From: a virus
Lineage: Duplodnaviria; Heunggongvirae; Uroviricota; Caudoviricetes
Virus record (IMG/VR): IMGVR_UViG_3300020577_007233
Coordinates: 1 to 64,000 of that record
Length of the DNA stretch: 64,000 nucleotides
Strand: one strand, 5' to 3'
A program made the translations under genes and the position numbers. The first letter of the stretch is position 1; each line of letters opens with the position of its first letter. The notes beneath the pieces are model-generated. The model was not told the origin of the DNA and did no database searches. It saw only the letters and a list, made by a program, of their open reading frames with translations. Of the stretch, positions 3,572 to 48,725 are shown piece after piece.

Positions 3572-3919
3572 CTAGATTTCTTCAATACGCTTAGCTTTAT
3601 CGTCAATTATCAGATCATATAACGGCTTCTTGTCGCCCATTTCAAGTTTATGAAACTTAGCGCCCCATCTCTGTAGCTGAGAAATAGTAAGCTCCCTCAA
3701 ATAAGTAAGCCTTTCTTTATTGTTCGGCTGAGAACTTCCTCTGGCCGTCCAATAAACGACTATCCAACCATCATCATATAGCTTGTTGATTTTTGCAATA
3801 TTAGCATAACTTGGAACGGCGTTTTCATACACTCTTTCGCCGTCAAAAAAGCATATTGTTTCGTCTATGTCAACAAACGCCGTTGGAACCTCATTGTTTT
3901 TTTGATGCGCTTCTAGCAT
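3572..3919 (-). CDS. minimal HAD-superfamily phosphatase (capsule biosynthesis type)
   Basis: VDIDETIC motif I, WTARG, KP...IDDK. Confidence 0.85.
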   Translation of the reverse strand: MLEAHQKNNEVPTAFVDIDETICFFDGERVYENAVPSYANIAKINKLYDDGWIVVYWTARGSSQPNNKERLTYLRELTISQLQRWGAKFHKLEMGDKKPLYDLIIDDKAKRIEEI

Positions 3920-4736
3920 TATAAGCCGTCCAGTAATCAAAACTCCTGACAAGATCATGATGATTCCGAATCTTTTGAGGAGATCTCATAATCATTTGCC
4001 AAGCTTCAAATGTTTGCACTTCTTCTGGTGTTCCAAAAACAGTTACAAAGTCAGTTGGATATGCATGAACGTTTAATCCATCCTTGATAAGGAGATTGTA
4101 GACAAGCGTAACGTAAAACTCGCCTTTGTAATTGATGTCAAGATCCATTAACTTTTGAAAGTATTCACGAACGTACCTGCCCTTTTTGAAGTAGTAAGTC
4201 CCTGTTGAACCATGTTCGTTCCAAAAGTTATCAGAATACGGCTCTTTCTCTTTGATTTCTAGAACTTTCTGATTCTCGTCTTTGATATGAGCCATAAACG
4301 TTGGACTCAAACGATGAGGATGAAATCCAATATGACTTAGTATGCACCCATCGCTATCATTGTCTTTGACCCACTTTTTGAAATGCTCGTAATCCCAAAG
4401 ATAGGGGTTATCGCAGTAAGAGATAATAACCTCTTCATCATCTTTGACTGTGTTCATTACGCCAGAATCAAGAACTGTAAATACCGGACCTTTTTTGTGA
4501 GGAGCAATAGTAAGTATTTCGCAGTTAGGGGAAAGCTCCTTGAGAACTTGCCTCATTTCCGTAGTTTCTAAGTGAGTCGCATTGCATATGAACACAAAGT
4601 CGTCTTTAGGATCAAACATCTCGTAGATATACTCAATGATCCTTTTGCCGTTGACTCGAATAAGAGGTTTAGGATCTGCATAGCCCGCTCTTACGAAACG
4701 GTCGCCAGTGCCAGCCATAGGAATGATTACTTTCAT
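3891..4736 (-). CDS. sugar-phosphate nucleotidyltransferase (NTP_transferase family)
   Basis: IIPMAGTGDRF...PKPLI, YCD, GEFYV, FGTPEE. Confidence 0.88.
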   Translation of the reverse strand: MKVIIPMAGTGDRFVRAGYADPKPLIRVNGKRIIEYIYEMFDPKDDFVFICNATHLETTEMRQVLKELSPNCEILTIAPHKKGPVFTVLDSGVMNTVKDDEEVIISYCDNPYLWDYEHFKKWVKDNDSDGCILSHIGFHPHRLSPTFMAHIKDENQKVLEIKEKEPYSDNFWNEHGSTGTYYFKKGRYVREYFQKLMDLDINYKGEFYVTLVYNLLIKDGLNVHAYPTDFVTVFGTPEEVQTFEAWQMIMRSPQKIRNHHDLVRSFDYWTAYNARSASKKQ

Positions 4737-6214
4737 AGTGTTTGCCTGTGTTTTTCTGATTCAAGACCAAGAATCATCTTAATTTGAGTATCGGTCAAAT
4801 ATCTGATTTTGCCAAGCTTAGAACCAACAATATTGATATAGTTGTGAGCAGCAATGGTCTCTTTTTTGTTGACATTGTTGAAAAAAACAGCAGCATCTGG
4901 AAAGGCAAATCCGGTATTAGATTCTCTTCCAGCAAAGAGAATGTCAAACTCTTCAGTTCCCTCTTGATTTTTGATATACTTCTTTGCAATATCATTGATT
5001 TCATTTACAAGAGAAATCGCTTCGTCAAGAGAGTCGCTTGATACTACTATGCCATGATTCTCAAGGAAATAGACGTTCTTATTCAAATCACTCTTTCGAA
5101 ACACTTCAAACAGATCATAACCAGGAGTTACATACGGTATGTACTCGTACTTCATGTGTCCCCAAAGGGTATCTGCAATTTGTTTCGAGTTTTCAAGGCA
5201 AAGCAAAGTGGTTGGATAAATAGAGTGAACATGAATAACGTACTTCTTTAGAAGCAAATGGAATCCAACCTCCATCGAAGGTATCTTATGTTTCATTCCA
5301 ATTCTCTTCAAGATAAGACTTAGCTGAACTTCGCTCAAGGAGTTGAGGATTTGTCTTGAGTCTGTTGGATGAATTATGGAATAGCCATTAAGACAATTGA
5401 TGTCTTTGATGTCGTATCCTGAAGCTTTTATGATCATGAAATCGCCAGTCTTGACGGAGATGTTACCTCCTCCGTTCTGACACATTTCAATGCTTTGCCC
5501 AATGACCTCCGAAGCCTTTGTGAAATCTTTGAAATCGCAAAGATACGTTCGTATAAACTCCAATAGACCTCTTGGAACAGTCTTGTTAGTGTTTCGTTTT
5601 ATTGAAACAGAAATGTCTACAGATTCGTGCTTATCTCCAAGATTCTTGATCTGAGAAATGGCATCTATTTTGACGACTATATCAGCAAGACTAATCTGCT
5701 TCTCTTTCAGCATGGCGGTATCGTGACTACGCTTCTTGATTATTTCAAGAACGTCATTGTACTTATAGCCTCTTTGCTCCGTATCTCTAATAAGCTTCCA
5801 ATGAGTTACTATGTTCTTGTCAACATCAACAAAGATTTTCAGATCTATAAGAGCATTGCTAATGTCTGTATAGAAAGCGTGAAGTCCTTCAACAACAATG
5901 ATTGGCTTGGCCTCTAGTTTTACGGGAGCATTAAACCATCCGCTCTTGTGGTTATAGCTGGACCTCCATATAGGCCTACCGTTTGCAAGAGTTTCTAAAT
6001 GACTATCTCCAAGTTCTAGATTATTAGCGATGGGATTTAGATGAGTAACGCCGCTCCACATTGGATTATGTCTTTCCCATTTATGAAGATCGTCCGTACT
6101 AATTGCTAGTATGTTTTCCTCACCAAAGAACAAAGAGATAATGTTAGCCATTGTGGACTTGCCCACACCGGACTCGCCTGATATACCAATAATGAAGGGC
6201 TTTTGTTGTGTCAT
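4733..6214 (-). CDS. phosphoribulokinase/uridine-kinase-like domain fused to class II aldolase/epimerase domain
   Basis: N-term IGISGESGVGKST, DDLH, VEGLH; C-term GGGNISVK, KASG, PSME..FH, HVH, LENHG. Confidence 0.85.
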   Translation of the reverse strand: MTQQKPFIIGISGESGVGKSTMANIISLFFGEENILAISTDDLHKWERHNPMWSGVTHLNPIANNLELGDSHLETLANGRPIWRSSYNHKSGWFNAPVKLEAKPIIVVEGLHAFYTDISNALIDLKIFVDVDKNIVTHWKLIRDTEQRGYKYNDVLEIIKKRSHDTAMLKEKQISLADIVVKIDAISQIKNLGDKHESVDISVSIKRNTNKTVPRGLLEFIRTYLCDFKDFTKASEVIGQSIEMCQNGGGNISVKTGDFMIIKASGYDIKDINCLNGYSIIHPTDSRQILNSLSEVQLSLILKRIGMKHKIPSMEVGFHLLLKKYVIHVHSIYPTTLLCLENSKQIADTLWGHMKYEYIPYVTPGYDLFEVFRKSDLNKNVYFLENHGIVVSSDSLDEAISLVNEINDIAKKYIKNQEGTEEFDILFAGRESNTGFAFPDAAVFFNNVNKKETIAAHNYINIVGSKLGKIRYLTDTQIKMILGLESEKHRQTL

Positions 6215-12751: not shown

Positions 12752-13572
12752 ACGATTTTTCCTCTTCTTGAGAGCTTGATAGCTCTTTGCTTTTCATAGT
12801 TCTTTGACCAACGATTCATGGCTTGCAATTTCTTGTTATTAGGATCCTGAATCATGCTAATCGGTATTTGCCCATTTTGGTCTGCTAACCTTTGAATACC
12901 CTTACCTTCTTCTCTAATGAGCCATTGTGTAAAGTTCCTATCTCCCCTGTTATACCCTTTGTCTCTCATCCAAGTTCTTCCCAAGTCTTTCAGAACAACG
13001 GTCTTGGGATCAAATGGGAAATACAAAAAGCTTTCTCTTCGATATGAAGCTTTCAAATTCCTAATTTGAACTTCAGGATTATCGGCTATTACCATCTTTT
13101 CTGCCATTTCTCGGCAAAAGGTTCCTCTAAGGAAGGAAGGCGATAGCCAGAAATCAGATTTAACATTCTTCCATGCCCTCAAAGCAACCTGTTGAACATG
13201 AGGAGGGATAAAGAACTGGTTGAATGACGAAACCTTGAAAGGAATAAGTAGCTCCCAATCATCTTCTAGATGGAAATTGTAGTATGTTTCTATCTTCGAA
13301 AAACACCACTTAATGGCAGATGCGAAGTTTGGAGTATGAGGCATATTGACAATAACATTGCCAAAATACTGCCTTGCAATACTGGCAACCTCTTCTCTTT
13401 TATGGTCTTCTTGCTTGTCCGGGAAGCTATCAATATTGATGTAAAGGGTTGCTCTTCTAAAGTTGAAGTCCTGTAGGTTCTTGGTAAAAGACTCGTAGGT
13501 TGCTTTAATTAGCTCCGGTCTTGGCATCGCTGTTGTTGTGAACGATAAAGTAGTCTCATCAATTGGATACAT
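12748..13572 (-). CDS. GT-A fold glycosyltransferase, paralog of 13559-14332
   Basis: FTTTAMPRPEL, HLEDDW. Confidence 0.7.
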   Translation of the reverse strand: MYPIDETTLSFTTTAMPRPELIKATYESFTKNLQDFNFRRATLYINIDSFPDKQEDHKREEVASIARQYFGNVIVNMPHTPNFASAIKWCFSKIETYYNFHLEDDWELLIPFKVSSFNQFFIPPHVQQVALRAWKNVKSDFWLSPSFLRGTFCREMAEKMVIADNPEVQIRNLKASYRRESFLYFPFDPKTVVLKDLGRTWMRDKGYNRGDRNFTQWLIREEGKGIQRLADQNGQIPISMIQDPNNKKLQAMNRWSKNYEKQRAIKLSRRGKIV

Positions 13573-14332
13573 TGGGGCCTCTGAAATTTCCATCAAGCTT
13601 AGAAAGGTCAATATCTAAACTTTGATCTTGACATTGCTGATCCCTCCAACGAGTTGTTGAATTTGGAAGGAATCTCCATTGCGTAAAGTCGTCCAAACCT
13701 CGACCGTAACAAGAAGTCTTTATCCAGGATCTTCCCAAATCTCTAAGAATTACCTTGTCATCCTCAAAGGGCCAATACACAAAAGATTTACTAGGGTTGT
13801 AAGGGTTTAGGTTCCTGATTTGCTCTTCAGGATTTTTGGCCGTATGCATCTTACTTGCCGCAAAGTTGCAAAATGAAGTCTTGATTATAGAGGGGCTTAG
13901 AACGAATCTTGGGTCCGACCTTTTCCATGCGCGAAAGCCAACTTGCAAGACATCGGGATTGTCAAAAAACTCAGTAACATACGAGGGAATATCACAAAGC
14001 AATTCCCAGTCATCTTCTAGATTGAAGACATATTCTGTGTTGGCTTGTGAAAAAACCCACTTAACAGCTTGCGGAAAGCATGAAAAACCAATGTTGACCA
14101 CAACGTTAGAGAAATAGCTTGAAGCTATTTCCTTTATTCGATCAATGTTGGCGTCTTGTTCCTTGTAGTCTGTTGAATAAGGGAACTTGTCTATGTTCAA
14201 GAACAACGGAATGCTCTTGAAGTCCAGCCACTTGATTCTGTCTCGGAAAGATGAGTATGTTTTCTCAAGCAATTCTGGACGAGGCATCGCCGTTGTCGTG
14301 AAACATATGTTACTAGAATTAGGTCTACTCAT
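13559..14332 (-). CDS. GT-A fold glycosyltransferase, paralog of 12748-13572
   Basis: FTTTAMPRPEL, NLEDDW. Confidence 0.7.
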   Translation of the reverse strand: MSRPNSSNICFTTTAMPRPELLEKTYSSFRDRIKWLDFKSIPLFLNIDKFPYSTDYKEQDANIDRIKEIASSYFSNVVVNIGFSCFPQAVKWVFSQANTEYVFNLEDDWELLCDIPSYVTEFFDNPDVLQVGFRAWKRSDPRFVLSPSIIKTSFCNFAASKMHTAKNPEEQIRNLNPYNPSKSFVYWPFEDDKVILRDLGRSWIKTSCYGRGLDDFTQWRFLPNSTTRWRDQQCQDQSLDIDLSKLDGNFRGPNVSN

Positions 14333-15309
14333 AATTTGATTATCGTACAACCACAGCAGGAGCCTTTATTGAATTTTGTCAGAAGCGATTCCCTTGATGC
14401 TAGAAGAGATTTACATGAAGGGCAAAAAGTGTTTTGATGACCCTCGTAGTAAGTGTTCTGAATGTAAACGAACTTCGAAGCGCTATAAAGGTCTCGAATC
14501 CTAAGAAGAAGGCTATCTGAGGTAACTTGAGTTCCTACATCCTTGTAGGCTGGATAGATTTTGAGAAGATGAACGGGAGTATGGGGGAAAGCTGACATAA
14601 GATCAGCAAAAGAACGATGCTCTTCTATTCGTGAATCATAATAAACAGGAACACTAACCTCAACATGAGTGTTGCCAATAGCGTAAACTAAGCAGTCAAT
14701 AATGGGAGAAAAATCAGGAACACCAAAAGAAGAGTACCGCTCCTTACTCCCTTTCCAGTCTATGTTCATCGCAGAAGAAACACTGCAAAGTTTTTTCCAA
14801 ACATCAAGATTGGCGTATGCGTTTGTTTTTAAGATAAGATCAAGGCCATGTTCCTGACACTGTTTTGCTAGGTCCATAACAAATTCGAAATACACAATAG
14901 GCTCATTGTATGTAAAACAAACAGCCCCGCATGACTTTTTGACTGCGAGGCTGCAAATGTCAATAGGAGACAAGTTTTGCGACGAATCTAGCTTATTTTC
15001 TTGACTAACCATCCAATTCTGACAATAGGAACAAGACATAGAACAGCCATAACCCCCAACAGATAAAGTCTTTAGGTTTGGCTTGTAATGATAGATAGGC
15101 TTCTTTTCTATTGGTTCAACCGCTGCATGCGTTATCTTGCCATAGGCCTCAAGCATTACGCCGTTGTCGGCGATTCTTGCCTGACAAACACCTCTTTGTC
15201 CGTTCCTTAACTTACATGCATGTGGACAGATGAGGCACTCAAAGCGGCCATCTTCAATCTGCCTAGATATCAATGTTTGATCATCTTGGATGGTTTGATG
15301 AGCAGCCAT
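14329..15309 (-). CDS. radical SAM enzyme, AmmeMemoRadiSam (AmrS)-like
   Basis: CLICPHAC...G.C..R, EPIEKKPIYH, CSMSCSYCQNW (CxxxCxxC), FTYNEP, NTFCPSC. Confidence 0.88.
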   Translation of the reverse strand: MAAHQTIQDDQTLISRQIEDGRFECLICPHACKLRNGQRGVCQARIADNGVMLEAYGKITHAAVEPIEKKPIYHYKPNLKTLSVGGYGCSMSCSYCQNWMVSQENKLDSSQNLSPIDICSLAVKKSCGAVCFTYNEPIVYFEFVMDLAKQCQEHGLDLILKTNAYANLDVWKKLCSVSSAMNIDWKGSKERYSSFGVPDFSPIIDCLVYAIGNTHVEVSVPVYYDSRIEEHRSFADLMSAFPHTPVHLLKIYPAYKDVGTQVTSDSLLLRIRDLYSASKFVYIQNTYYEGHQNTFCPSCKSLLASRESLLTKFNKGSCCGCTIIKL

Positions 15310-15575
15310 ATTTCGTCTTGCCCTTTAACATCGCTTTCAATTTTAGAGCTTGGCGGATCTTTGACTTCGGAATAGAACAAGTTCTCTGCACAAATACCTT
15401 GACACAAAGACAGGCTATCTTTGTGAATGGTTACATACTGATCTTTCACCTTGTTATCTTTGTAGAACTCAATGAGAGAAACTCGTATCTTCTCAACAAC
15501 ACAAGCCGCATCATAGCCAAAGCGAAATTCAGGGCCGTATTGGTCAAGATATATTAGTTTGATGTGCTTGGTCAT
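15270..15575 (-). CDS. hypothetical protein
   Basis: ORF with AGGAGG SD before ATG 15575. Confidence 0.65.
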   Translation of the reverse strand: MTKHIKLIYLDQYGPEFRFGYDAACVVEKIRVSLIEFYKDNKVKDQYVTIHKDSLSLCQGICAENLFYSEVKDPPSSKIESDVKGQDEIWLLIKPSKMIKH

Positions 15576-15624
15576 GGCTCTCCTCCTGCTCAGGAATACA
15601 GAAAGAGACCAAACAATCCTCTGA

Positions 15625-16032
15625 TTACTCTCGCACTGTAAGTCTAATGGTTGTAACACCACTATTATCAGTAGACTGCCCATCCCACTGATACGGTCCT
15701 GATTGAACTATCTTGTGGACAACATCAGTGGTGTAATGCTTGACAAGTTCAGGGAACTTTTCATCCCATTTTCTCTTATCAAAGGCAGAAACATGAACAG
15801 TATAGGTTCCGTCTGTTTCTCGAAAGAAGCCAATATCATTACTGGCTGCTCCGACCTGACCCCTTGGAATAACTATGTGAGCTTTTTGACTACGGGCGTC
15901 TCCCTGATAACCAGAAAGTGCCACGGCGTTGTCGTGAACTTTTGGACGAAAACCAATCTTCTTGAGCGCCTCCAACAAAGACGCTTCGTACTGTACCCTA
16001 AGTTCACATTTTACGGAATGAAATTCAGAAAT
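15625..16032 (-). CDS. DUF1257 (Ycf35-like) protein, probable ATT start
   Basis: In-frame (I/M)SEFHSVKCEL...LLEALKKIG...GYQG...NDIGF; AAGGAG SD just upstream of ATT at 16032. Confidence 0.75.
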   Translation of the reverse strand: MSEFHSVKCELRVQYEASLLEALKKIGFRPKVHDNAVALSGYQGDARSQKAHIVIPRGQVGAASNDIGFFRETDGTYTVHVSAFDKRKWDEKFPELVKHYTTDVVHKIVQSGPYQWDGQSTDNSGVTTIRLTVRE

Positions 16033-16918
16033 GGGAATCTCCTTATTAATCTAAAGCATGAAACTTATAGTATTTACGATCTAAGAATACAGTTGCGTTT
16101 CGATAGAAATATCTTTCGACTTTCTTTGCTAATTGATTACCATGAAAACACATTTCCCAACCATTTTTCTTTTTTCTATAATGAGAAAGTGCTTCGGTAT
16201 CAAATTCTTTTCTAAAATGATCAGAAATAAATTCCATCACCTGCTTGTTCCCAAAAATACTTCCACATATATTATTGGTTGATTCTACTATTGAAACACT
16301 TCCATCTCCGTCAAAGTATCCTCTGATCCAATGTCTAATCAAACTTTTTCTAATCACCGGAGGTTGAAGTGTTTTGCTTTTTCTGGGAGTAACACCAAGA
16401 TTTATGAAATCTTTAACCAATTCTCGATGATTTATCTGAAGCATATCACAAAGAAAAATATCAGTTTTGCCGTTATGGGTAAGGTGGTGCTTCCGATCAT
16501 AGTGAATTGGTCCATCGTATTTTATTGCAGATTTAAGCTTTTCAAGATGACCTCTATCTTTTGAGGACAGCTCTATTTGTAAGCATTTTTTACTTTTAGA
16601 ATCAACAATACATCCATCTGCCGCAATAAATCCCAGCCAATATGCTTTTTCTTCGGTATCAATCTTTTTGAAGAATGATTCATCAAATGAATAGCAACTT
16701 TTTGGCCTTGTCCTTTCTAGTCTTGGTCTTGTAAGACCAAATTTTGCAGCTAAATACTGAACCTGATGAGGCTTAATGCCCAAATCTTCAGCTATTTCGT
16801 GTCTTCTTTTTCGTTGTACAACATACAATACTTCAATCTGATTTTTGGTTATGTTTGTTTTCATAAAGTATTCTACTTATAAAGAGTGAAGAATACCTTC
16901 TTAGCTTTCAAATTCAGA
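16030..16918 (-). mobile_element. 889-bp homing-endonuclease insertion flanked by a duplicated TCTGAATTT
   Basis: aaattcaga at 16021-16029 and 16910-16918; removing the segment restores ATG TCT GAA TTT CAT TCC of the DUF1257 gene. Confidence 0.75.
16046..16864 (-). CDS. LAGLIDADG homing endonuclease with N-terminal HTH
   Basis: EEKAYWLGFIAADG and HWIRGYFDGDG motifs, LDRK C-terminus; AT-rich relative to flanks. Confidence 0.93.
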   Translation of the reverse strand: MKTNITKNQIEVLYVVQRKRRHEIAEDLGIKPHQVQYLAAKFGLTRPRLERTRPKSCYSFDESFFKKIDTEEKAYWLGFIAADGCIVDSKSKKCLQIELSSKDRGHLEKLKSAIKYDGPIHYDRKHHLTHNGKTDIFLCDMLQINHRELVKDFINLGVTPRKSKTLQPPVIRKSLIRHWIRGYFDGDGSVSIVESTNNICGSIFGNKQVMEFISDHFRKEFDTEALSHYRKKKNGWEMCFHGNQLAKKVERYFYRNATVFLDRKYYKFHALD

Positions 16919-16940
16919 CATGATAAAACTCCAATTTTGA

Positions 16941-17426
16941 TTACATCGGCCAAGGCATTTTACGAAGCTTATAGATGTACCTGATGATTTCATATACCGC
17001 CCCTTTACCTCCTGAGGCGTTAGCAACATATGCAGAATGCTCTACAACTTCTGGTACTGCATCAGATGGACATGAGGGAAAGCCTGCTTCTAAAATGCAT
17101 CTATAATCATTTTCAGCATCTCCAATGTATGCCACATCTTCCCAAGTCATATTGTTTGCTTGAAGGTATTTACTAAGGTCTACAAGCTTGTCTCGACTTC
17201 CGCTAATAACATCGTATTTGTAGCCAAATTTCTCTCGATGAATGTCGTCTGTAGCGCCAGTAATGATCAAGATTTTGAACCCATCATTTTTGGCTTGATT
17301 TAGAGCATAGCTATCTCTTGTGTGAAAGTTTTTATGAATCTTGCCATTTTCGCCAACGTAATAGTTACCGTCCGTCAGCGTTCCATCAACATCTACTGCA
17401 ATAAGTTTTAGCGATTCTATGCTCAT
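16941..17426 (-). CDS. kdsC: KdsC-like HAD phosphatase (KDO-8-P/KDN-9-P phosphatase family)
   Basis: DVDGTLTDG, K.F..RD, AYIGDAEND, GGKGAV. Confidence 0.88.
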   Translation of the reverse strand: MSIESLKLIAVDVDGTLTDGNYYVGENGKIHKNFHTRDSYALNQAKNDGFKILIITGATDDIHREKFGYKYDVISGSRDKLVDLSKYLQANNMTWEDVAYIGDAENDYRCILEAGFPSCPSDAVPEVVEHSAYVANASGGKGAVYEIIRYIYKLRKMPWPM

Positions 17427-18268
17427 TGTTCTTTCCTTAGCTTTGCCCTCTCGGTAAGCTCTTTTTCGTCAGGATACGGCGGGGCATAGTCTATTGCACA
17501 GGAAACGTTCTTCAAATCCCTACAAAGTTTCCTGAGACCCTCTGGTTCAAGACTTGCAGCGGCATCAGTATGTCTCAAAGTTCGGTCATCAACAAAATGT
17601 CTTTCTATGTATTCTGAACCAAGCATCATTGCCGCTATGTCGGCTGCAATGCCATATCCATGATTTGAAAATCCAACTCTAAAGCCTGAATCAACAAGAC
17701 GACCTATTTCCAGCAAATGCAACTTATCGAAAGGACACGGATAAATGCTGGTACAATGATAAATCACAAAACGATCAATAACAAAAGACTTCATGAACTT
17801 GATTAGGTCTTCTTTTTCTTCTTTCGAGGACATTCCTGTAGATATATGAATATCTCCGTCGAAACGGCCTAGTAGGTATTTTATCATCTCTCTGTTATGA
17901 TTGCATGGACTTGGAATCTTGATGAAATCAGGATTGAGAGAAGCAATTTGGGCAGCAGAAGTCATATCCCATACGGAACATGAGTAGCCGATGCCAAGCT
18001 GTTTACAGTACGAATAAAGCTCTTTATGCTGTTCAATGTCAAATTCTAGAGCCTTTCTATGCTCAAGGTAAGTTTCTCCGTAAGCAAAGGTCTTGTTTGG
18101 ATGAGGCTTGTTCTTTATGTTCTCTGGAACGCTTTCATCAGGATTCCTTTTTTGGAATTTGACATAATCGGCTTCGCATAAGGTTGCCAACTGTATAAGC
18201 TTCTTGGCTCTTTCCATAGAACCGAGATGTACGCATCCAATCTCCGCTATAACTGTAGGGGGAATCAT
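17423..18268 (-). CDS. neuB: N-acetylneuraminate/nonulosonate synthase family (lacks C-terminal AFP domain)
   Basis: VIAEIG..H.G, VKFQKR, KIPS, ISTGMS, HCTSIYP, GFSNH, IERHF. Confidence 0.92.
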   Translation of the reverse strand: MIPPTVIAEIGCVHLGSMERAKKLIQLATLCEADYVKFQKRNPDESVPENIKNKPHPNKTFAYGETYLEHRKALEFDIEQHKELYSYCKQLGIGYSCSVWDMTSAAQIASLNPDFIKIPSPCNHNREMIKYLLGRFDGDIHISTGMSSKEEKEDLIKFMKSFVIDRFVIYHCTSIYPCPFDKLHLLEIGRLVDSGFRVGFSNHGYGIAADIAAMMLGSEYIERHFVDDRTLRHTDAAASLEPEGLRKLCRDLKNVSCAIDYAPPYPDEKELTERAKLRKEQ

Positions 18269-18975
18269 AGAAATCCTCCGAAGGTTTTGAAAAGACTGCT
18301 CATCATGTCGAAGTCTTCTTGATCGTCAATCTGCATACTCTCAAACTCTGGTGTTTCATATAAACAAGTTCTTCCAGAAACTCTTAATCCAGATTTGCGA
18401 AAACTTTCAGTCTTTGTTATGTAGATGTTTCCGTTGTCAAAGAACTGATAATCGGATTCCAACAATTCCTGTCTCATTGGTCTGTCTTTAAGGGAATAGG
18501 ACGGAAAAGCTTCGCCTGTTATGCGGTCTTTGCGCCAGAAAAAAGGCGTAGTCTTTTTGACAGTTATTAGACTGTCGTAGTTTCCTCGCACTAACGTTTC
18601 GATGCACTTGTCTATTAGCTGCATTCTCCTGCAAGGAGATGTTCCTTGAAGCATAATCAAATAGTCATAGTCACCATAAAAAGTCAACAAGTGCTTAATG
18701 GCTTCTTCGGTTTTTGAAACGGGTGAACAAAGCTCATCCGGTCGCTGAAGAAACTCACAACGTTCTCTATTGCTTGAGAACGATTCTACAGCCTCTTTGA
18801 TTCGAGGATCGTTAGACGAAGTAACTACCTTGTCAATATAGCGACTGTGCATCGCAGCCAACAAAGTCCATTCAAGGAGCGAATAATCACCAATGGTCTT
18901 AAACAATTTGTTTGGAAGACCAACAGATCCGGTTTTGCCTGGAACGAAAGCTAGTATGCTTTTATCGTTTATCAT
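18265..18975 (-). CDS. neuA: CMP-nonulosonate synthetase (acylneuraminate cytidylyltransferase)
   Basis: PGKTGSVGLPNK, RPDEL, LQGTSPCR, RPMRQE, NGNIY, IDDQEDF. Confidence 0.88.
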   Translation of the reverse strand: MINDKSILAFVPGKTGSVGLPNKLFKTIGDYSLLEWTLLAAMHSRYIDKVVTSSNDPRIKEAVESFSSNRERCEFLQRPDELCSPVSKTEEAIKHLLTFYGDYDYLIMLQGTSPCRRMQLIDKCIETLVRGNYDSLITVKKTTPFFWRKDRITGEAFPSYSLKDRPMRQELLESDYQFFDNGNIYITKTESFRKSGLRVSGRTCLYETPEFESMQIDDQEDFDMMSSLFKTFGGFL

Positions 18976-32587: not shown

Positions 32588-34564
32588 TCACCCAAACATA
32601 TCGCCGGCTTCAACGCCTTTTTTCCTAGCTCTCTTGAGGTCTTCTCGAATGATGGTAAACTCTTTCATGATATCATCCTTTGATTTACCTCTTCCCTGCT
32701 TTGGCTTAAAGAAACCAGCAGCCAGTAAAGATTCTACAGCTTTCGTATCAACAACCTTCGTATCTGTCTTTTCTGCAAAGTCTTTCAAACTCGTATAAGG
32801 CTGATTCTTTTCGATATTCTCAACAGCCGCATCACTAAGGCCTTTACACTTCAAAGAAGGCATAATTTGCGATTTAGGAACTCCATTGGACGGATCTGCC
32901 TTAGATGCAATGTAATATCTAGCCTTACAATCGTTGATATGTCTCTGAAGAATCTCTACATTCATTTCCTTAGCCATCTTTTCCAACGATTCTACCTTTT
33001 CATACTTTGACCTACCGATTTCAACATTGAGATAAGCAGTAAGAAATTCTTCTGGATAATTGGCCTTCAGGTATGCTGTAATGTAAGAATTGTACGCATA
33101 GCAACAAGCGTGAGCCTTATTGAAGCCGTAATCCGCAAACGGCATGATGACTCTATCCCAATAGTCTTGGGCAACTTTACCATCTATACCGTTTTCTTGC
33201 GCGCCAGAAATGAATCTAGCTCGATACTTTGCAAGCAGTTCTGGCTTCTTCTTACCAATAGCTTTGATAACAACGTAACCTTCAGGGATCGAAAAGCCTG
33301 CAACAGCGTTGCATATCTGCATGACCTGTTCTTGATAAACAAGCAGTCCATACGTCTTCTTGAGATATGGCTCAATATGCTTCCTCAAAGAAGAATGGAA
33401 GTAATCTATTGGTTCGACACCGTGCTTACGATTGCAGTAAGTAGGAACTGACTCCATAGGGCCGGGACGGTACAAAGCTATACCTGCCATGATATCATCA
33501 AGAGAGTCAACTCCCATGTTTACCATTGTCTTTTGCATTCCATGCTCTTCGCACTGGAACACTCCGACAAGCTGACCGCTCTTATAGAGATCAAACGTCT
33601 TTCGATCATCTAGAGGCAAATCGTAAACGTCAATATCTATACCATAGTTCTCTTTTACAAGCCTGCAACAATGGTTGATAACAGAAAGGGTACTAAGAGC
33701 AAGAATATCGAACTTGATAAGACCAAGCAATTCAAGATCGTTGTACTCAAACTGAGTAGCAAATGTATACTTAGGCCCATCATTTTCTTCGCCGTCTTCG
33801 CTGACAATCTTGGTCTGGCGAAGCGGCGCTATGCTTGATAGAGGCTCATTCGAAATAACAATACCGGCAGCATGCACTCCGAAAGTAGAAAGTAATCCCT
33901 CGATATTGCGAGAGTGAGTGAGGATATCTGGGTATTTGTCAACGTAGTAACGAAAATTCTTGCACCACTTGTAAGCGTCCTCGACAGTTTTGATTGCATG
34001 TTCATTGCCATCCTGATCCTTAACCTTCAAAAAGGCTCCATATTGCTCAGGGAGTGAGTCAAGAATCTCATTTCCCAACTCATTTGTTTCAACTTTCCAC
34101 TGATCATGACCTTTGAAGAAAGTTCTTTCTGGATCAACAGCCTTGATGACCCTTCTAACGAAGCTCTTCATCTTGAGGCCAGAATACGTTCCTATGTTTC
34201 CAACGTGTTCTCTTCCGTATGTATCAATAATGTACTTATAGATTTCGTTTCGATGCTCATAATCGAAATCTGAATCAATATCGGGAAAGCCCTTACGGGC
34301 AAAAGCTCGACGCTTCTGCAAGAACGAAGAACCTTCGTCTGGCTTTTTGTCAGTCATTCCAAGAGCATAAGCGGTCCATGAGTTGATCTCATTTCTCTTG
34401 CCCTTTTTGCCAGCAGAGTTTTTCCATAGTCCATGAAACTTCTGAAGAATAGGCTTTTCATCAAGCCCTTCAGTTTTTTCCATCTTTTCAAGCTCTTCTT
34501 GAACAAGAGGAAGTAACGACTTATCTTGAATAGCTTCTAGAATTTCTTCTTTAATTGTTGACAT
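32588..34564 (-). CDS. dnaE: DNA polymerase III alpha, C-terminal part (palm catalytic Asp, thumb, fingers, HhH)
   Basis: FPDIDSDF, HAAGIVI, KFDILAL, GVFQCE, ALYRPGP, YQEQVM, YGFNKAHA, YLKANYP. Confidence 0.93.
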   Translation of the reverse strand: MSTIKEEILEAIQDKSLLPLVQEELEKMEKTEGLDEKPILQKFHGLWKNSAGKKGKRNEINSWTAYALGMTDKKPDEGSSFLQKRRAFARKGFPDIDSDFDYEHRNEIYKYIIDTYGREHVGNIGTYSGLKMKSFVRRVIKAVDPERTFFKGHDQWKVETNELGNEILDSLPEQYGAFLKVKDQDGNEHAIKTVEDAYKWCKNFRYYVDKYPDILTHSRNIEGLLSTFGVHAAGIVISNEPLSSIAPLRQTKIVSEDGEENDGPKYTFATQFEYNDLELLGLIKFDILALSTLSVINHCCRLVKENYGIDIDVYDLPLDDRKTFDLYKSGQLVGVFQCEEHGMQKTMVNMGVDSLDDIMAGIALYRPGPMESVPTYCNRKHGVEPIDYFHSSLRKHIEPYLKKTYGLLVYQEQVMQICNAVAGFSIPEGYVVIKAIGKKKPELLAKYRARFISGAQENGIDGKVAQDYWDRVIMPFADYGFNKAHACCYAYNSYITAYLKANYPEEFLTAYLNVEIGRSKYEKVESLEKMAKEMNVEILQRHINDCKARYYIASKADPSNGVPKSQIMPSLKCKGLSDAAVENIEKNQPYTSLKDFAEKTDTKVVDTKAVESLLAAGFFKPKQGRGKSKDDIMKEFTIIREDLKRARKKGVEAGDMFG

Positions 34565-36047: not shown

Positions 36048-36899
36048 TTATTCTCCAAAACACATTGATTCAACCCCGTGCCTTTCGGCATAGGAACTTT
36101 TCTTAACAATGAGCAATTCAATCTCTCTGTCTTTCTCTTCTTCTGTTTGCATGCTTTTTGCTACAGACTTTTTATAGTAAGCAAAACCTTCCTTTTCAGG
36201 ATAAAGCTGCCTAATAGCTTCGCTGTCGTAATACGAGATTGCACAACTGCCTTTGACTGATTTTACAACACCAGCCATCTCTTTATGATCAAATCCCTTT
36301 TTCTTGTTTACATGATAGAAGTTCTTTTCAACATTTTTGTAAGGAGGGTCAAGATAAAAAAGAGCTTCTGGACAATCCCATTTTCTCATACAATCTTCGT
36401 AGTCAAGATTCTCTATGTAAACATGGCGAAGAAAAGCTGCGCATTGTTCAATAAGAGGAGGCAATCTTGCCCAAGTTAGACAAATGTTCTCGCCAGTTCT
36501 AGAAACACACCATGAACCATCTTCCTTACCAAACATGCACTGTCTGTTATAGATGAGATAGTTTCTGGCCCATTCAACAGGGTTTTCTTTCAAGAAATCT
36601 TTATCGCCTTCAATATACTCGTTGGCAAGATCAAAGTCTCTTCTACTATAAGGGGTCGTAACAACTGCGCTTAAGAACTCGTCCCTATGATCTCTAATAA
36701 CTCTAAATAGATTCCATACATGACCATCCAGGTCGTTATAGATCATTCTGTATTTGTCGTCGGGTTTAGGCATGCCATACCCAACCGCAAAACTTCCGCC
36801 AAATGGCTCGCAGTATACGGTATGAGCAGGCAAGTGTTTGATTATCCATTTACGAATTTTCACTTTACCGCCTATTCTTTTTATGATAGTGTCTGCCAT
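36048..36899 (-). CDS. Dam/D12-class N6-adenine DNA methyltransferase
   Basis: GGK, YCEPFGGS, YND, IENLDY, YLDPPY. Confidence 0.92.
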   Translation of the reverse strand: MADTIIKRIGGKVKIRKWIIKHLPAHTVYCEPFGGSFAVGYGMPKPDDKYRMIYNDLDGHVWNLFRVIRDHRDEFLSAVVTTPYSRRDFDLANEYIEGDKDFLKENPVEWARNYLIYNRQCMFGKEDGSWCVSRTGENICLTWARLPPLIEQCAAFLRHVYIENLDYEDCMRKWDCPEALFYLDPPYKNVEKNFYHVNKKKGFDHKEMAGVVKSVKGSCAISYYDSEAIRQLYPEKEGFAYYKKSVAKSMQTEEEKDREIELLIVKKSSYAERHGVESMCFGE

Positions 36900-37420
36900 T
36901 CTCTCCCCTCGCCAAGGATCTCCCAAGTGTTTTTTCTGTAATCCACAAGTCGATAAAACTTAGCATCGGAAATGGGAACTTTTCGAACATAATCCGGTCC
37001 TCTTCTTGTATTTTCAAGAACAGGATTCAGCGGGTCATAAGCTTCATACTTTATGATAGCGATTCCCTTAAGATCTTCGCTGCAAAGAGCAAAGGTTGTA
37101 AACCTATTTCTTGAGTTCGCTTCCTTACTCTTCCTGTTAAGTACATTAACTGTATCAAACGGGAAGTACCCATTACCAAACGCCCAGTTATGCTTTATCT
37201 CTGCGCTTATGATAAGGTGTTTGCCGCCTAAATCGCATTCAATATCCCTATGATAGGGTAAATCTCTTTCTGAACCTGCCTCTGCTATCAGATTCTTGGC
37301 TCCAAGTCTGTGAAGAAGACTAAATACAGCCATCTTAGCAAGAACATCGCACTCGAAGTCTTCCTCTCGGAAGCGAGAAGCCTCTTTTCCTTTGATGCTT
37401 TTGTCAACTTGAATCATCAT
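36881..37420 (-). CDS. putative PD-(D/E)XK nuclease
   Basis: RDIECD...SAEIKHNW spacing resembles the D...E-x-K motif. Confidence 0.45.
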   Translation of the reverse strand: MMIQVDKSIKGKEASRFREEDFECDVLAKMAVFSLLHRLGAKNLIAEAGSERDLPYHRDIECDLGGKHLIISAEIKHNWAFGNGYFPFDTVNVLNRKSKEANSRNRFTTFALCSEDLKGIAIIKYEAYDPLNPVLENTRRGPDYVRKVPISDAKFYRLVDYRKNTWEILGEGREWQTLS

Positions 37421-37421
37421 T

Positions 37422-38831
37422 TCAATACCTATCAACTCCGCCAGCATCCTCAGTAACATCTCGGTCTTCAAACAACTCGGTATTAACAACCTCTTCAATA
37501 GCTGGAACTGCTACTTCTTCGCCAAAGAAATCTTGTTCTTGAACGAAATACTTATCATCAAAACCAAGGAATCGTTCCCAAATCAAGTCATACTTCAAAG
37601 GATCTGGTCCGTAAGAAATGCCTATAGCTCTAAGAAGAACGCTAGCATAACCAGAACCTCGACCACACCCTGTTAGGATGTTCTGATCCTTAGCTTTCTG
37701 TATGTAGTCTCTAACGATCAAGAAATAAGTCGCAAAGTCATACTTGTTATTTTCCCAAGCAACTCTTACGTCCTCAAGTTCTCGCTTAAGTCTTTCAACA
37801 TGCGGAGGGCTTCTATCCCATCCCAATTTCTTCATTCCCTCCCATGAAAGGTGAGAAAGATAGTCAAACGGAGAAGCAAACCCTTCCGGCATTTTGTACC
37901 TAGGCAAACGCATGCCTGAATTCATATTGGTCCAAATGTCCTTTGCGTCAACCTTGTCAGCAACAGTTACGGTATTCAGCAAGAACTCTGGATGAGAACC
38001 AAACATAACAGCCATCTCAGCGGCTGACTTCATGTAAAATTCATGGTAAGGGAAATGCAAGTGCTTTGGATCGTGCAAGCATCTACTTGTAGACATGCAC
38101 ATAAGAATTTCTTGCGAGAGTCCGTGTTCTTTCTTGCAGTAGTGACAGTCATTGGTAGCAATAATCGGAACGTTCATGTCCTTTCCGATTTTAATGATAT
38201 CTGGAATGATCATAGCTTCTGCATCAATGCCATGATACATAACTTCCAAATGGAAGTCTTCCTTGAAGATGTCCTTGAAGATGCCAACAGCTTTCCTTGC
38301 CTCTTCAACTCTACCATGAAGAATGTTTGCGTTGATTACGCTGCTCAAGCAAGCTGAGTTGCACATAAGACCTTCGCTATGCTTGGCAAGAAGCGGAAGG
38401 TCAATACGAGGGTCAATATACCATCCCTCTGTCCAAGACTGCTGAGAAAGGGCGCAAAGATTCTGCCACCCCTTCCAGTTTTTGGCTATCAACACAAGGT
38501 GTCTATTACCCTTGCGACCCTCTGTTTGGCCTTTGATAACTTTAGTACCTTCTCTTTTTTCAGTAAAGCGAAGGTTTCTGTCTTTGGATAAGTAGAATTC
38601 GCATCCAACAATAGGCTTGATGTCAAAGTTCTTTTCTTTGTCATTCCAGCAAGATTGAATGAACTTGACTGCTCCACCGATATTTCCGTGGTCAGTTAAG
38701 GCTAGGGCTTTGAATCCCATCTCTTTTGCAGATTTAGCAAATCCTGAAAGCTTATTCAGCCCGTCAAAAGACGAGTATTCCGAGTGGTTGTGAAGATGCA
38801 CAAAATCCGCATTGGTTATCGTTCTGCTCAT
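37422..38831 (-). CDS. dnaE: DNA polymerase III alpha, N-terminal part (PHP domain plus first part of palm)
   Basis: FVHLHNHSEYS, ALTDHG, KPIVGCE, TNDCHY, YFLIVRD, GRGS, WERFL. Confidence 0.93.
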   Translation of the reverse strand: MSRTITNADFVHLHNHSEYSSFDGLNKLSGFAKSAKEMGFKALALTDHGNIGGAVKFIQSCWNDKEKNFDIKPIVGCEFYLSKDRNLRFTEKREGTKVIKGQTEGRKGNRHLVLIAKNWKGWQNLCALSQQSWTEGWYIDPRIDLPLLAKHSEGLMCNSACLSSVINANILHGRVEEARKAVGIFKDIFKEDFHLEVMYHGIDAEAMIIPDIIKIGKDMNVPIIATNDCHYCKKEHGLSQEILMCMSTSRCLHDPKHLHFPYHEFYMKSAAEMAVMFGSHPEFLLNTVTVADKVDAKDIWTNMNSGMRLPRYKMPEGFASPFDYLSHLSWEGMKKLGWDRSPPHVERLKRELEDVRVAWENNKYDFATYFLIVRDYIQKAKDQNILTGCGRGSGYASVLLRAIGISYGPDPLKYDLIWERFLGFDDKYFVQEQDFFGEEVAVPAIEEVVNTELFEDRDVTEDAGGVDRY

Positions 38832-45737: not shown

Positions 45738-48725
45738 TTAATTGCTCAAATCAAGATTGATAGCATCTTTTTTCAGGTTTGACTCTGATGCTTCTTCTAT
45801 TGTGTTTGCAAACTTACATCTACCCTTTGCCCACTCTCTCATTTGTTCAAATTCTTTGTCTCTCGTTTTTGACAAAGGAGAAATAGTAGAACAGGATTTG
45901 AGTATGTCTTTGGAAGTTATCTTTCTTTTGCCGTCGCAAAAACACTCAAACATTGAATCTTCAATGGCTTTTTCAATTTCAGCACCGCTAAAGCCTTTTG
46001 TATGAGAAGCAAGGGCGTCAAGATTGAACTCAGAAGAATCATGCTTGAATCTCTTAAGCAGAACATCAAAAATCTGTCGTCTACCAGCTTCGCCAGGCAA
46101 ATCAACAAAAAATACTTCATCAAACCTGCCTGCTCGCATAAACTCAGGAGGAATGTCTTGAACATTGTTAGCCGTGCAAATAACGAAAACAGGAGCCGTC
46201 TTTTCTTGAAGCCATGTCAAAAACGTTCCGATGACTCGCTTTGTTGTTCCGCTATCACCAGAACCTGCCCCTACACCACCAGCAAGACCTTTCTCAATTT
46301 CATCTGCCCAAAGTATGCAATTGTGACAGAGAAAACCGTTAGCAAAGAAATTGTTATTGCCTTCGCAGGAAAGATCGTATGCAAACTGCATACCAACAGA
46401 CTCGATTTTCTGTATCTTGACAGAAATAACATCTGACTCAACAAGCTTAGTTATTGGGCAAGATGAATCACTCTTGAACTTCTTCTTCAAGAACATATTC
46501 AACATAGAAGCCGCCCCATGCTGCATCATTACAGCATCTTCTTCAAATCCGCAGATTTGACTGTACTTGCTTTCGGTAACTCCAAAATTAGACTTAAGGT
46601 AAGCCAAAGATTTACCAAATTTATAGCCAACCATATCAATCAAAAGCGGACGATTGAGTTCGATATGATTCATAAAACCTGCCACGCTAGTAACGGAGGT
46701 TTTTGACAAGTATGGCAACTCAGCAAGAAGCGTTCTAATGAATAGCGGGTCAAGAATAATAGCTGTTCTCAAAGACTTAGAAGCGATAATACCATAAACC
46801 AGAAGCGATTTGCGCAATCTATCAAACGAAGCTTCTGTCTGTATTGGAAATGAAACATAAGGCTTACGAGGGGTTTCTTCGTCCCTATCTACAAAACCAA
46901 TTTGGCCGCCAGCATGAAAGAACCCTCCAAGATACGACTGCAAGGCGTCCATATCTTGAGAGCCAAGATCCCGCAAGAAGGCGCTAATAGCCTCGGCAAC
47001 AACCTTGTTCTTCAACCTTACAAAGCTATCGCCTATCTCCGGTTCAGTAAGGAAAGTCTGGCTCATATAGAAAGCAAAGATATGTCTCGTTGATGAGTTG
47101 TTGCTCGAAAAGAGAATATCGCCAGTTTCTGTGTTACAGTTTCCATTGGAATCTATCATTCCAGCTATGGTTGCCACTCCTTCAAGGCTCGTCATGGGTA
47201 CGGAAATATCAGCGCAATGCAAATTACCGCCAACTCTCGAAACCGCCTTCGTCCCCTTTGCGGTAGGGAATAGTTCTTGAATTTGGAAGCTCTTTACATC
47301 TCTCTTGAGATATTTAGGCATAACAAGAGCATCATTAGCGGCAAGCTTACTTGCCTCAACCCAAATTAAGTCGCCATCTCGGTTCACCATCATCTTATGA
47401 TTGCGAGTAACTTCAATAGAACCAGCAGAAGTTGTGATTTTCAGCATGCTCTTCTTTCGGGCATGCTTAATAACGGCCTTGACCTTTGTTTTCTCTATCT
47501 TCCAGGTCTTTTCATTCAAGGCATAGATATACATTGGTTTATCGCCATTGCCTGCGTCAATAAGATCTTTGATCTTAAAACTCTTGCCTTCGTGATCGTA
47601 AACAATGGAATCACCGCTAACGCATGGAGCAATCGTTTCGGACAGCTTAATAGCATGGCGAGCAATCTTTTCGCTTTCTCCAACAAGGGAATTGAACATC
47701 TTGCCAAAGTCAAGCCTAAGCAAAGGCATCTCATACATTGTTGATGCGGCCTTAGCGGTCAAGCTTTTACCACAACCTGGTAATCCAAGCAAAAGTACAC
47801 CCTTTGGCGGCTTAAGACCATAAGATGCAGCGTCCTTTGAAAAGGAAACTCTTCTAATGTTCATCCAACGAGCAAGGTTATCAAGACCTCCAACATCGTT
47901 CATATTTACTTGCGAGTCAACGTATTCAAGAACATCGGTTTTCTTGATGATCTGTTTCTTTTCCTGAAGAATCATTCCGATATCTAAGGGCTTTAGTCCA
48001 AGTTGATTCGCCATAACAATAGACTTGGAATAAGCTTGATTTGCCTCTGTTAACGTAAGACCCTTAACAGCGTTGACAAGCTCTTCTTCTTGTTTGTTGA
48101 TAATCTTCGATATCGTTGGCATACTGGCAATGATTTTATCTGCGCTTGTAAGAGAATGCAAAACGGATTTGATTTCCTGTTCGTTAGGGAACGGGAAGTC
48201 AAGAATTGCAACCTCTTTCTCAAGGGCTGGATTGCCAATGAAACTTGGACCAGTAAAGATCACATGAGAGTTAGAAACAAGCCTATTCAGGTACTTGATT
48301 TGTCTCTCAATCTGAGGGTTACATCTATCTGGACTCAGATAGCGGTAGAAATCACAAAGAATAAAGATAGAGCCATTGCCTTCGATCTTTTTCTTTTCTT
48401 CGTTCTCAAGTTCGTCAATAATGAAAGCGAGTATCTGTTCTGGATATCTCAAATCAAGCGTTGAATTCGTCTGTAAAGGAGCCTTCTTGCCAAGACTACG
48501 AAGAAGCTTGAAGCAATCCCATTCAAAAGCCTGGTAGCCTCGGTCTTTCGAAACGCTATCAAGATATTCCAGCAATCGTTTCTCATCGCTGCTTGAGATA
48601 TAGATTACTTTGGTTCTTGTTCTAAGTAGAGCAATAAGACTGTTGGCAAAATCAACAGTCGCCATTCCAAGATACTTCTTCCTGAAATCCTGACTATCAG
48701 TTGGTAGGCTCGTTTCTTTCGGCAT
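45738..48725 (-). CDS. Ycf46-like AAA+ ATPase containing an intein
   Basis: DVGGLDNL, GLPGCGKS, VGESE, AP|C...N|CILWADEIEK, TANN, PPEFMRAGRFDE. Confidence 0.9.
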   Translation of the reverse strand: MPKETSLPTDSQDFRKKYLGMATVDFANSLIALLRTRTKVIYISSSDEKRLLEYLDSVSKDRGYQAFEWDCFKLLRSLGKKAPLQTNSTLDLRYPEQILAFIIDELENEEKKKIEGNGSIFILCDFYRYLSPDRCNPQIERQIKYLNRLVSNSHVIFTGPSFIGNPALEKEVAILDFPFPNEQEIKSVLHSLTSADKIIASMPTISKIINKQEEELVNAVKGLTLTEANQAYSKSIVMANQLGLKPLDIGMILQEKKQIIKKTDVLEYVDSQVNMNDVGGLDNLARWMNIRRVSFSKDAASYGLKPPKGVLLLGLPGCGKSLTAKAASTMYEMPLLRLDFGKMFNSLVGESEKIARHAIKLSETIAPCVSGDSIVYDHEGKSFKIKDLIDAGNGDKPMYIYALNEKTWKIEKTKVKAVIKHARKKSMLKITTSAGSIEVTRNHKMMVNRDGDLIWVEASKLAANDALVMPKYLKRDVKSFQIQELFPTAKGTKAVSRVGGNLHCADISVPMTSLEGVATIAGMIDSNGNCNTETGDILFSSNNSSTRHIFAFYMSQTFLTEPEIGDSFVRLKNKVVAEAISAFLRDLGSQDMDALQSYLGGFFHAGGQIGFVDRDEETPRKPYVSFPIQTEASFDRLRKSLLVYGIIASKSLRTAIILDPLFIRTLLAELPYLSKTSVTSVAGFMNHIELNRPLLIDMVGYKFGKSLAYLKSNFGVTESKYSQICGFEEDAVMMQHGAASMLNMFLKKKFKSDSSCPITKLVESDVISVKIQKIESVGMQFAYDLSCEGNNNFFANGFLCHNCILWADEIEKGLAGGVGAGSGDSGTTKRVIGTFLTWLQEKTAPVFVICTANNVQDIPPEFMRAGRFDEVFFVDLPGEAGRRQIFDVLLKRFKHDSSEFNLDALASHTKGFSGAEIEKAIEDSMFECFCDGKRKITSKDILKSCSTISPLSKTRDKEFEQMREWAKGRCKFANTIEEASESNLKKDAINLDLSN
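46320..47624 (-). mobile_element. 435-aa intein with degenerate LAGLIDADG domain
   Basis: starts CVSGDS, block B VTRNH, ends YDLSC...NFFANGFLCHN followed by extein Cys. Confidence 0.93.

Follow-up and report, generated by a model that had tools for sequence, protein, structure and literature searches.

We analysed a 64,000-nucleotide stretch of a tailed-phage genome (Caudoviricetes; positions 1 to 64,000 of IMG/VR virus record IMGVR_UViG_3300020577_007233, hereafter the window) in which the start of a DUF1257-family gene is interrupted by a LAGLIDADG homing endonuclease gene (HEG). We consider it highly probable that this is a free-standing cassette, neither intron nor intein, that homed into codons 4-5 of the DUF1257-family gene within the nonulosonic-acid cluster (NeuB, CMP-sugar synthetase, HAD phosphatase) of a huge phage. 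The mobile DNA is 889 bp long and consists of a 45-nt leader, the HEG encoding 272 amino acids (aa), and the sequence AAGGAG-n6-ATT TCT GAA TTT. Its insertion severed the resident Shine-Dalgarno sequence (SD) and ATG-Ser-Glu-Phe from the body of the gene, leaving a six-codon stub. The SD, AUU and first three codons of the cassette continue in frame into the gene from codon 5, and the full 135-codon reading frame is therefore preserved. The cassette is found in phage lineages that have diverged from one another, and there is also an allele that lacks it.

Anatomy of the insert and the rebuilt gene start

All window coordinates given for the HEG/DUF1257 locus refer to the minus strand. The left homology arm is a gene for a HAD-type, KdsC-like hydrolase of 161 aa (16941-17426; Pfam Hydrolase_3, E = 1.1e-10). 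Downstream of it lies the original SD of the DUF1257 gene, GGAG (16929-16932), now stranded 7 nt ahead of the ATG of the stub, ATG TCT GAA TTT GAA AGC TAA (16901-16921). The same GGAGTTTTATC precedes the ATG of the insert-free metagenome contig L111, and comparison with this contig resolves the relic open reading frame (ORF) into the original ATG and codons 2-4 (TCT GAA TTT) followed by cassette-derived GAA AGC TAA.

The insert itself (16021-16909) corresponds to an exact 889-bp gap between L111 and the window, with boundaries that can slide by up to 9 nt inside the TCTGAATTT repeat; on either side of the insert the repeat reads CAT[G/T]TCTGAATTT (12-13 nt). The leader (16865-16909) is conserved in L007, L197, L017 and L012, as is its motif ...AAGAAGG...TATAAGTAGAATA, and holds no SD upstream of the HEG ATG. 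The HEG (16046-16864) is followed by a compact module that runs TAA TAAGGAG ATTCCC and then ATT TCT GAA TTT CAT TCC. This module contains the cassette-borne replacement SD, AAGGAG (16039-16044), placed 6 nt ahead of the replacement start ATT (16032-16030); the ATT and codons 2-4 (16021-16032) are absent from L111, and the equivalent in L007 is GGAGACTCCC ATT. Non-coding DNA within the insert amounts to 70 nt, 45 nt before the HEG (16909-16865) and 25 nt after it (16045-16021), and the HEG ORF makes up 92% of the total length.

From position 16020 down, the DUF1257-family gene is the resident gene body and is 100% identical to that of L111. Counted from the ATT, the gene has 135 codons (15625-16032, stop at 15627-15625). 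Its frame is closed upstream by a TAG at 16053-16051, with no ATG, GTG or TTG between this stop and the ATT, and the next canonical start in frame, a TTG at 15978, lies 18 codons inside the conserved domain. The first-pass annotation had described a stub, a HEG, an SD with an ATT start and non-coding flanks of about 45 and 25 nt; with all coordinates rechecked, this anatomy agrees with the minus strand base for base.

An insert-free allele

L111 is a contig of 1,977 bp from which exactly the 889 bp are missing. Its flanks are 97-100% identical to those of the window, with the hydrolase gene in the same range and the DUF1257 DNA at 100%, and across the site it reads ...GGAGTTTTATC ATG TCT GAA TTT CAT TCC GTA AAA. 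Removal of the insert had been expected to restore ATG TCT GAA TTT CAT, and this is precisely the junction found. More distant insert-free relatives (L001, L013, L014 and many more) start with MSE[FY]H, and the MSEF N-terminus anticipated for insert-free homologs is present in L111, L001 and many others. The hydrolase gene also lies upstream of DUF1257 in L001, L003, L004 and L007, and in HEG-free relatives its stop either overlaps the DUF1257 start or comes shortly before it. An exact search of IMG/VR for the empty-site junction gave no match. Among near-identical genomes the element is present or absent at a single site, and between diverged genomes it is more conserved than its flanks, as is characteristic of a mobile homing element.

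The cassette in diverged lineages

The same arrangement is found in a second lineage (L007, L008, L009 and L011) with a DUF1257 protein 92.6% identical to that of the window. Between the window and L007, identity is ~96% in the HEG block and cassette as compared with ~82-86% in both flanks, and the block of high identity takes in the SD and the ATT, ending at ...ATT TCT GAA TTT CAT. The Ser codon of the stub is specific to the lineage, being TCT in the window and L111 and AGC in L007 and L197, as in the HEG-free L001. The stub of L007 accordingly reads ATG AGC GAA TTT, whereas the copy 3' of its HEG reads ATT TCT GAA TTT, as in the window and unlike its own stub. It follows that the stub is resident and that the SD-ATT-TCT-GAA-TTT module came with the HEG. 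Taken together, the contrast in identity between cassette and flanks and the lineage-own stub codon of L007 indicate horizontal movement of the cassette together with the new start that it carries.

Other lineages have junctions of their own. In L197, whose HEG is 71% identical to that of the window, the left junction is ATG AGC GAG TT/GGAGGA... (slash at the junction) and the DUF1257 gene starts with an ATA that overlaps the HEG stop. In L017 (41% HEG identity), the HEG lies between copies of a 52-bp duplication that spans intergenic DNA, the SD, the ATT and six codons. The left junction therefore falls after TTT (window and L007), after TT (L197) or at codon 7 (L017), and this clustering in codons 4-7 probably marks where the double-strand break occurs. 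In L012 only a decayed relic precedes the HEG, which is situated between the hydrolase gene and an ATT start; we call the stub decayed because the position of its ATG reads ACG.

The stub and regenerated start recur in the L007 group, in L197 and, as the 52-bp duplication, in L017, and are not peculiar to the window. The earlier proposal that the element inserts into start codons needs one correction: the insertion point lies after codon 4 and not inside the start codon itself. As had been suggested, other LAGLIDADG genes were screened for the same architecture. Among 61 further loci from the wider HEG family, only the L017 contig had flanking duplications and none had a regenerated SD + ATH start (ATT, ATC or ATA), so that the architecture is specific to the DUF1257-associated subfamily.

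In L197 (620-680), the TGA of the hydrolase gene overlaps the stub ATG and the TGA of the 17-codon stub ORF overlaps the HEG ATG, giving ATGA twice. From this arrangement, the captured original initiation site probably feeds ribosomes to the HEG by coupled translation in L197. Such coupling is not general, because in the window the stub stop and the HEG ATG are 36 nt apart and in L012 the stub ATG reads ACG.

Some relatives, among them L141, L147, L154, L169 and L183, have two or three DUF1257 paralogs in tandem, and in these the HEG sits between paralogs. In the paralog-bearing lineage formed by L141, L147, L154 and L169, the last codons of the HEG overlap a consensus sigma-70-like promoter (TTGAAA or TTGACA, 16-17 nt, TATAAT), and in L141 a 54-bp duplication of the promoter region lies on either side of the HEG (2903-2965 and 3838-3900).

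The endonuclease

The 272-aa product of the HEG matches Pfam LAGLIDADG_3 (E = 2.8e-12) and phrog_4645, annotated 'endonuclease' (E = 9e-55). It contains two LAGLIDADG motifs, YWLGFIAADGC and HWIRGYFDGDGS, each ending in a catalytic acidic residue, and so belongs by its motifs with the single-chain, two-motif LAGLIDADG homing endonucleases. A weak match to PDB entry 2DCH (E = 0.28) spans both motifs. Residues 1 to ~55 form a conserved N-terminal region with no family match, which by our own reading only may be a putative helix-turn-helix. The gene is present once in the 256.8-kb virus record, itself estimated to be about half complete. Ten HEG lineages were recovered, at 37-97% identity; in each the HEG lies directly 5' of a DUF1257 gene or paralog, every ORF is open and both motif aspartates are kept. 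Near and distant DNA searches of 50,697 phage records returned no relative.

Several candidate signals and devices around the HEG were rejected. A late-promoter role for TATAAGTA in the leader is unconvincing because, although the window has five sites against 1.55 expected, they fall mostly within ORFs. A hairpin ahead of the HEG ATG (GUAUUCU/AGAAUAC) is not conserved in L017, and a scan of the region for sigma-70 promoters and terminators gave matches at shuffle level only. A frameshift fusion of the HEG to DUF1257 was rejected because the frame offset is not conserved, being +1 in the window and L012 and +2 in L017.

Identity of the DUF1257 gene and translation of its N-terminus

At E ≤ 1, Pfam gives no match to the window protein itself. 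In an alignment of this protein with 15 homologs, 14 of the 16 sequences match PF06868 (best E = 2.5e-17), and the window protein matches the PF06868-matching homologs with E values of 4e-13 to 5.5e-71; judged from these comparisons, the DUF1257 label appears to hold through homology rather than through a direct Pfam match. The gene is a conserved member of a phage nonulosonic-acid-type cluster (window ~13559-18975) that comprises a CTP_transf_3 cytidylyltransferase, NeuB, the HAD hydrolase, DUF1257, a 101-aa ORF, a radical SAM protein and glycosyltransferases, with synteny kept in L001, L003, L004, L007 and L012-L014 on contigs of 100-550 kb.

The first 18 residues are conserved across the family alignment. 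Within codons 2-18, differing codons are synonymous and non-synonymous at 5:1 against L007 and 4:1 against L197, much as in the rest of the gene, where the corresponding counts are 27:7 and 32:9. Codons 2-18 are thus under purifying selection in HEG-carrying lineages. The internal GTG chosen by gene callers in L007 is GTA in the window, and there is therefore no conserved internal start. Selection on codons 2-18 together with the lack of a conserved internal start argues for translation from codon 2 or earlier, that is, from the AUU, which we infer to be the initiator of the DUF1257 gene.

Public gene calls are wrong at the 5' end for every allele seen that starts with AUU, AUC or AUA (AUH). 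In the miscalled proteins P0002 (L007), P0004 (L197), P0005 (L003), P0006 (L192) and P0011 (L004), the called start is either an internal GTG, TTG or ATG, which shortens the protein, or an upstream TTG lacking an SD, which lengthens it. Annotations of this family should be treated with corresponding caution, as gene callers truncated or mis-extended each such allele.

Non-AUG starts across the family

We surveyed start codons at 71 distinct DUF1257 loci on viral and metagenome contigs. The codon aligned to Met1 is ATT or ATC at 20 of the 71, and 15 of these 20 have no in-frame canonical start upstream; ATA is found at this position in L195, L197, L154 and L169, and ACG once. A GGTG-type SD within 13 nt of the start accompanies 16/20 AUH loci and 4/51 loci with canonical starts (p = 5e-9), and a HEG lies directly upstream of 6/20 and 1/51, respectively (p = 0.0015); neither statistic is corrected for shared ancestry, and the DUF1257 tree is poorly resolved. 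In nine of the ten HEG lineages a strong GAGGTG-type SD and an ATT, ATC or ATA start codon open the gene just 3' of the HEG, with L021, which has ATG, as the exception.

When start type was placed on a quick DUF1257 tree, 15 changes were needed for 18 rows, no better than with shuffled labels. Start type is thus scattered over the tree, and the initiation module does not simply follow the gene body. The third base of the start codon in HEG-linked alleles takes all three non-G values and is G only once; this is suggestive, if statistically weak, of counter-selection of ATG next to the HEG. Searches for scars of HEG 3' ends upstream of HEG-free AUH alleles gave mostly shuffle-level matches. The best of these, L183 against L147, is explained at least in part by a shared promoter-like intergenic element. 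Escape from the enzyme, loss of a former HEG or, in some lineages, retention of the ancestral state may each account for the HEG-free AUH alleles.

One way to connect these observations, which we put forward tentatively and hold to be possible rather than probable, is that the recognition site includes the ATG region of DUF1257. Any change of that G would then block cleavage, the strengthened GAGGTG-type SD would compensate for the weak initiator, and the HEG and its immune AUH start would travel as a unit. Were this so, AUH alleles without a HEG would either have escaped by mutation or have outlived a lost HEG, and a selfish element would dictate start-codon identity across a phage gene family.

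Proposed mechanism and alternatives

We propose that the enzyme cuts ATG-type alleles near GAA TTT/CAT, and that a genome carrying the HEG then serves as the template for repair of the break, with the crossover on each side only a few bases from the insert. Repair would copy the HEG plus the adjacent gene start of the donor and, where homology on the left is poor, the broken left end would be kept as a stub, a relic. The non-AUG start region would thus be the gene start of the donor allele, linked to the HEG and co-converted with it, and this version probably persists because the enzyme does not cut it. DUF1257 would be translated from the AUU with the aid of the strong SD. The SD + AUH is best read as a co-converted donor gene start, possibly immune to cleavage, and not as a device invented by the element. 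The first-pass annotation had the element supply a replacement SD and ATT, which is right in that both are cassette-borne; they are not unique to it, as many HEG-free DUF1257 genes and the L017 stub have them too.

It seems to us extremely unlikely that the insert is instead removed from the RNA, as a degenerate group I or group II intron or by an unknown excision, with ATG TCT GAA TTT CAT restored and the ATT unused. Phage LAGLIDADG genes are often intron-borne and removal anywhere within the repeat would give the ancestral mRNA, but an Rfam scan of 15300-17300 at E ≤ 10 returned chance-level matches only and no intron family, the folds of the stub/leader RNA and of the RNA around the new start have z-scores of -2.0 to +1.9, no better than shuffles, and the ORF leaves little of the insert for an intron. 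The splice-site rules of both intron groups are broken at the repeat-bounded junction. The P3-P9 core of group I introns is not found, and the U before the 5' splice site and the terminal G that they require are impossible in combination because the repeat makes the last base of the 5' exon the same as the last base of the intron. There is likewise no GUGYG start, AY end or Rfam match for group II, and the ORF is of the LAGLIDADG type, not the reverse-transcriptase type expected there. Nor is the insert an intein, because its HEG runs from an ATG to a TAA in a different frame; a TAA also closes the stub, and Intein_splicing and Hint matches are absent. Duplications of 52-54 bp in the relatives include an SD or a promoter, and introns make none such, while in HEG-free L003, L004, L192, L193 and L195 the gene begins at the same SD + AUH start with nothing to splice. 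The earlier description of a non-splicing element is thus upheld. Translational bypass was dismissed as well, since no known ribosomal hop comes close to 889 nt.

We also regard it as improbable that the SD and ATT are native to the host gene, with the HEG merely intergenic upstream and supplying nothing, and L111 a deletion product between short repeats. Such a history would fit the AUH starts with strong SDs that are common in HEG-free relatives and occur in the L017 stub, the position of the HEG in L012, and a 9-nt repeat that could mediate precise loss. It fits poorly with the ATG-type gene start (SD, ATG and 3-4 codons) found upstream of the HEG in three lineages, in each of which an ATG-type gene was interrupted, because the Ser codon of the stub matches that of the lineage's HEG-free relatives; nor does it account for a right copy in L007 that differs from its own stub and equals the window cassette, or for a block of high identity that takes in the SD and ATT. 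That DUF1257 is crippled in HEG genomes, either untranslated or truncated (to TTG 15978 here and to the GTG in L007) with the ATT incidental, is very unlikely in our estimation. AUU is a weak initiator in model bacteria, and gene callers start HEG-bearing alleles at an internal GTG (the 123-aa proteins P0002 and P0004). Yet substitutions in codons 2-18 are mostly synonymous in HEG-bearing lineages, the frame beginning at the ATT is uninterrupted in each, there is no conserved internal start, and a strong SD is correctly spaced from the AUH in ~20 lineages. Several points nonetheless weigh against a homed cassette that brought its own start. The SD + AUH starts of HEG-free L003, L004, L192, L193, L195 and others, and of the L017 stub, mean that the module need not originate with the HEG. 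The sequences do not polarise the difference between L111 and the window; a genome like the window could also give rise to L111 if its 9-nt repeats recombined, so L111 could be a precise-loss revertant instead of the ancestor. The repeat score was reached in 16 of 300 shuffles, which puts a 12-nt repeat alone at chance level, and its meaning is settled because the insert-free allele L111 exists with the exact gap. The disregard of shared ancestry in the start-codon statistics counts on the same side.

Relation to known systems

Free-standing HEGs with intron-less homing are well known in phages, as in SegF, SegG, MobE and I-TevIII of the T4 type and F-CphI of a cyanophage. Like these, the DUF1257 cassette holds a stand-alone gene between or in phage genes, is polymorphic in presence and absence among close relatives, and would spread by break repair with co-conversion while achieving self-immunity through target sequence differences. 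The known enzymes are mostly of the GIY-YIG or HNH type and lie between intact genes, whereas the LAGLIDADG gene here interrupts a coding sequence whose start is present in duplicate and has been replaced by one with a non-AUG codon.

T4 mobA with the gene 60 cassette and the mobE-split nrdA of Aeromonas phage Aeh1 likewise combine a HEG in or next to a phage gene with a device that keeps the product functional. That device is translational bypass or a two-piece protein in those phages; here the protein is in one piece and has a new initiation site. AUU-initiated genes include infC of E. coli and the internal start of T4 gene 26, and these share with DUF1257 a near-cognate AUH initiator behind a good SD. 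They differ in that AUU, AUC and AUA recur at one orthologous start in ~25 phage lineages, in statistical association with the HEG.

A further parallel is found in fungal mitochondria, where Allomyces atp6 is a case of a mobile endonuclease ORF with a duplicated gene end. C-terminal duplications of atp6 and cob in fungal mitochondria are flanked by GIY-YIG and LAGLIDADG ORFs (PMC6279837). The earlier suggestion that our element may represent an undescribed class is therefore overstated, since these fungal ORFs with duplicated gene ends are its mirror image (PMC6279837). In both, a non-intronic HEG in a coding region brings a replacement for the displaced gene end and the original end persists as a relic. 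The fungal cases concern 3' ends, often with in-frame fusion, in organelles; the phage cassette replaces a 5' end, including SD, start codon and four codons in all, without fusion to the host ORF. The DUF1257 cassette is thus an analogue of the fungal-type mobile endonuclease ORFs and not a member of them. F-CphI is cited in PMC6279837 (its ref. 65), and HEGs at exchange boundaries are described in PMC10448857. In full-text literature searches and a search for terms within PMC10448857, we found no account of such a cassette in a phage and none of one tied to a non-AUG start.

A spare gene start adds to introns and inteins a third means by which a HEG can reside inside a phage coding sequence without destroying it. 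Filled and empty alleles at 100% identity, together with ten diverged HEG lineages at one gene family, make this a clean natural system. It should be useful for studying target choice and self-immunity in free-standing LAGLIDADG enzymes, how short co-conversion tracts rewrite translation signals, and why AUU, AUC and AUA initiators persist.

Other features of the window

The gene for DNA polymerase III alpha (DnaE type) is in two pieces on the minus strand (32588-34564 and 37422-38831), one with the PHP domain and the first part of the NTPase domain and the other with the rest of the NTPase, finger and HHH domains. The pieces are ~2.8 kb apart and five ORFs lie between them, one encoding a D12-class adenine methyltransferase (36048-36926); the two pieces may represent a split or 'fractured' gene. 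A second selfish element of the window is an intein in a 995-aa AAA+ ATPase (45738-48725, minus strand; Pfam Intein_splicing at residues 378-802, E = 8.5e-23). Also on the minus strand are a 1,953-aa ORF with Kelch-repeat beta-propeller matches around residues 555-830 (58117-63978) and a 493-aa fusion of a phosphoribulokinase/uridine-kinase-family domain to a class II aldolase domain (4733-6214).

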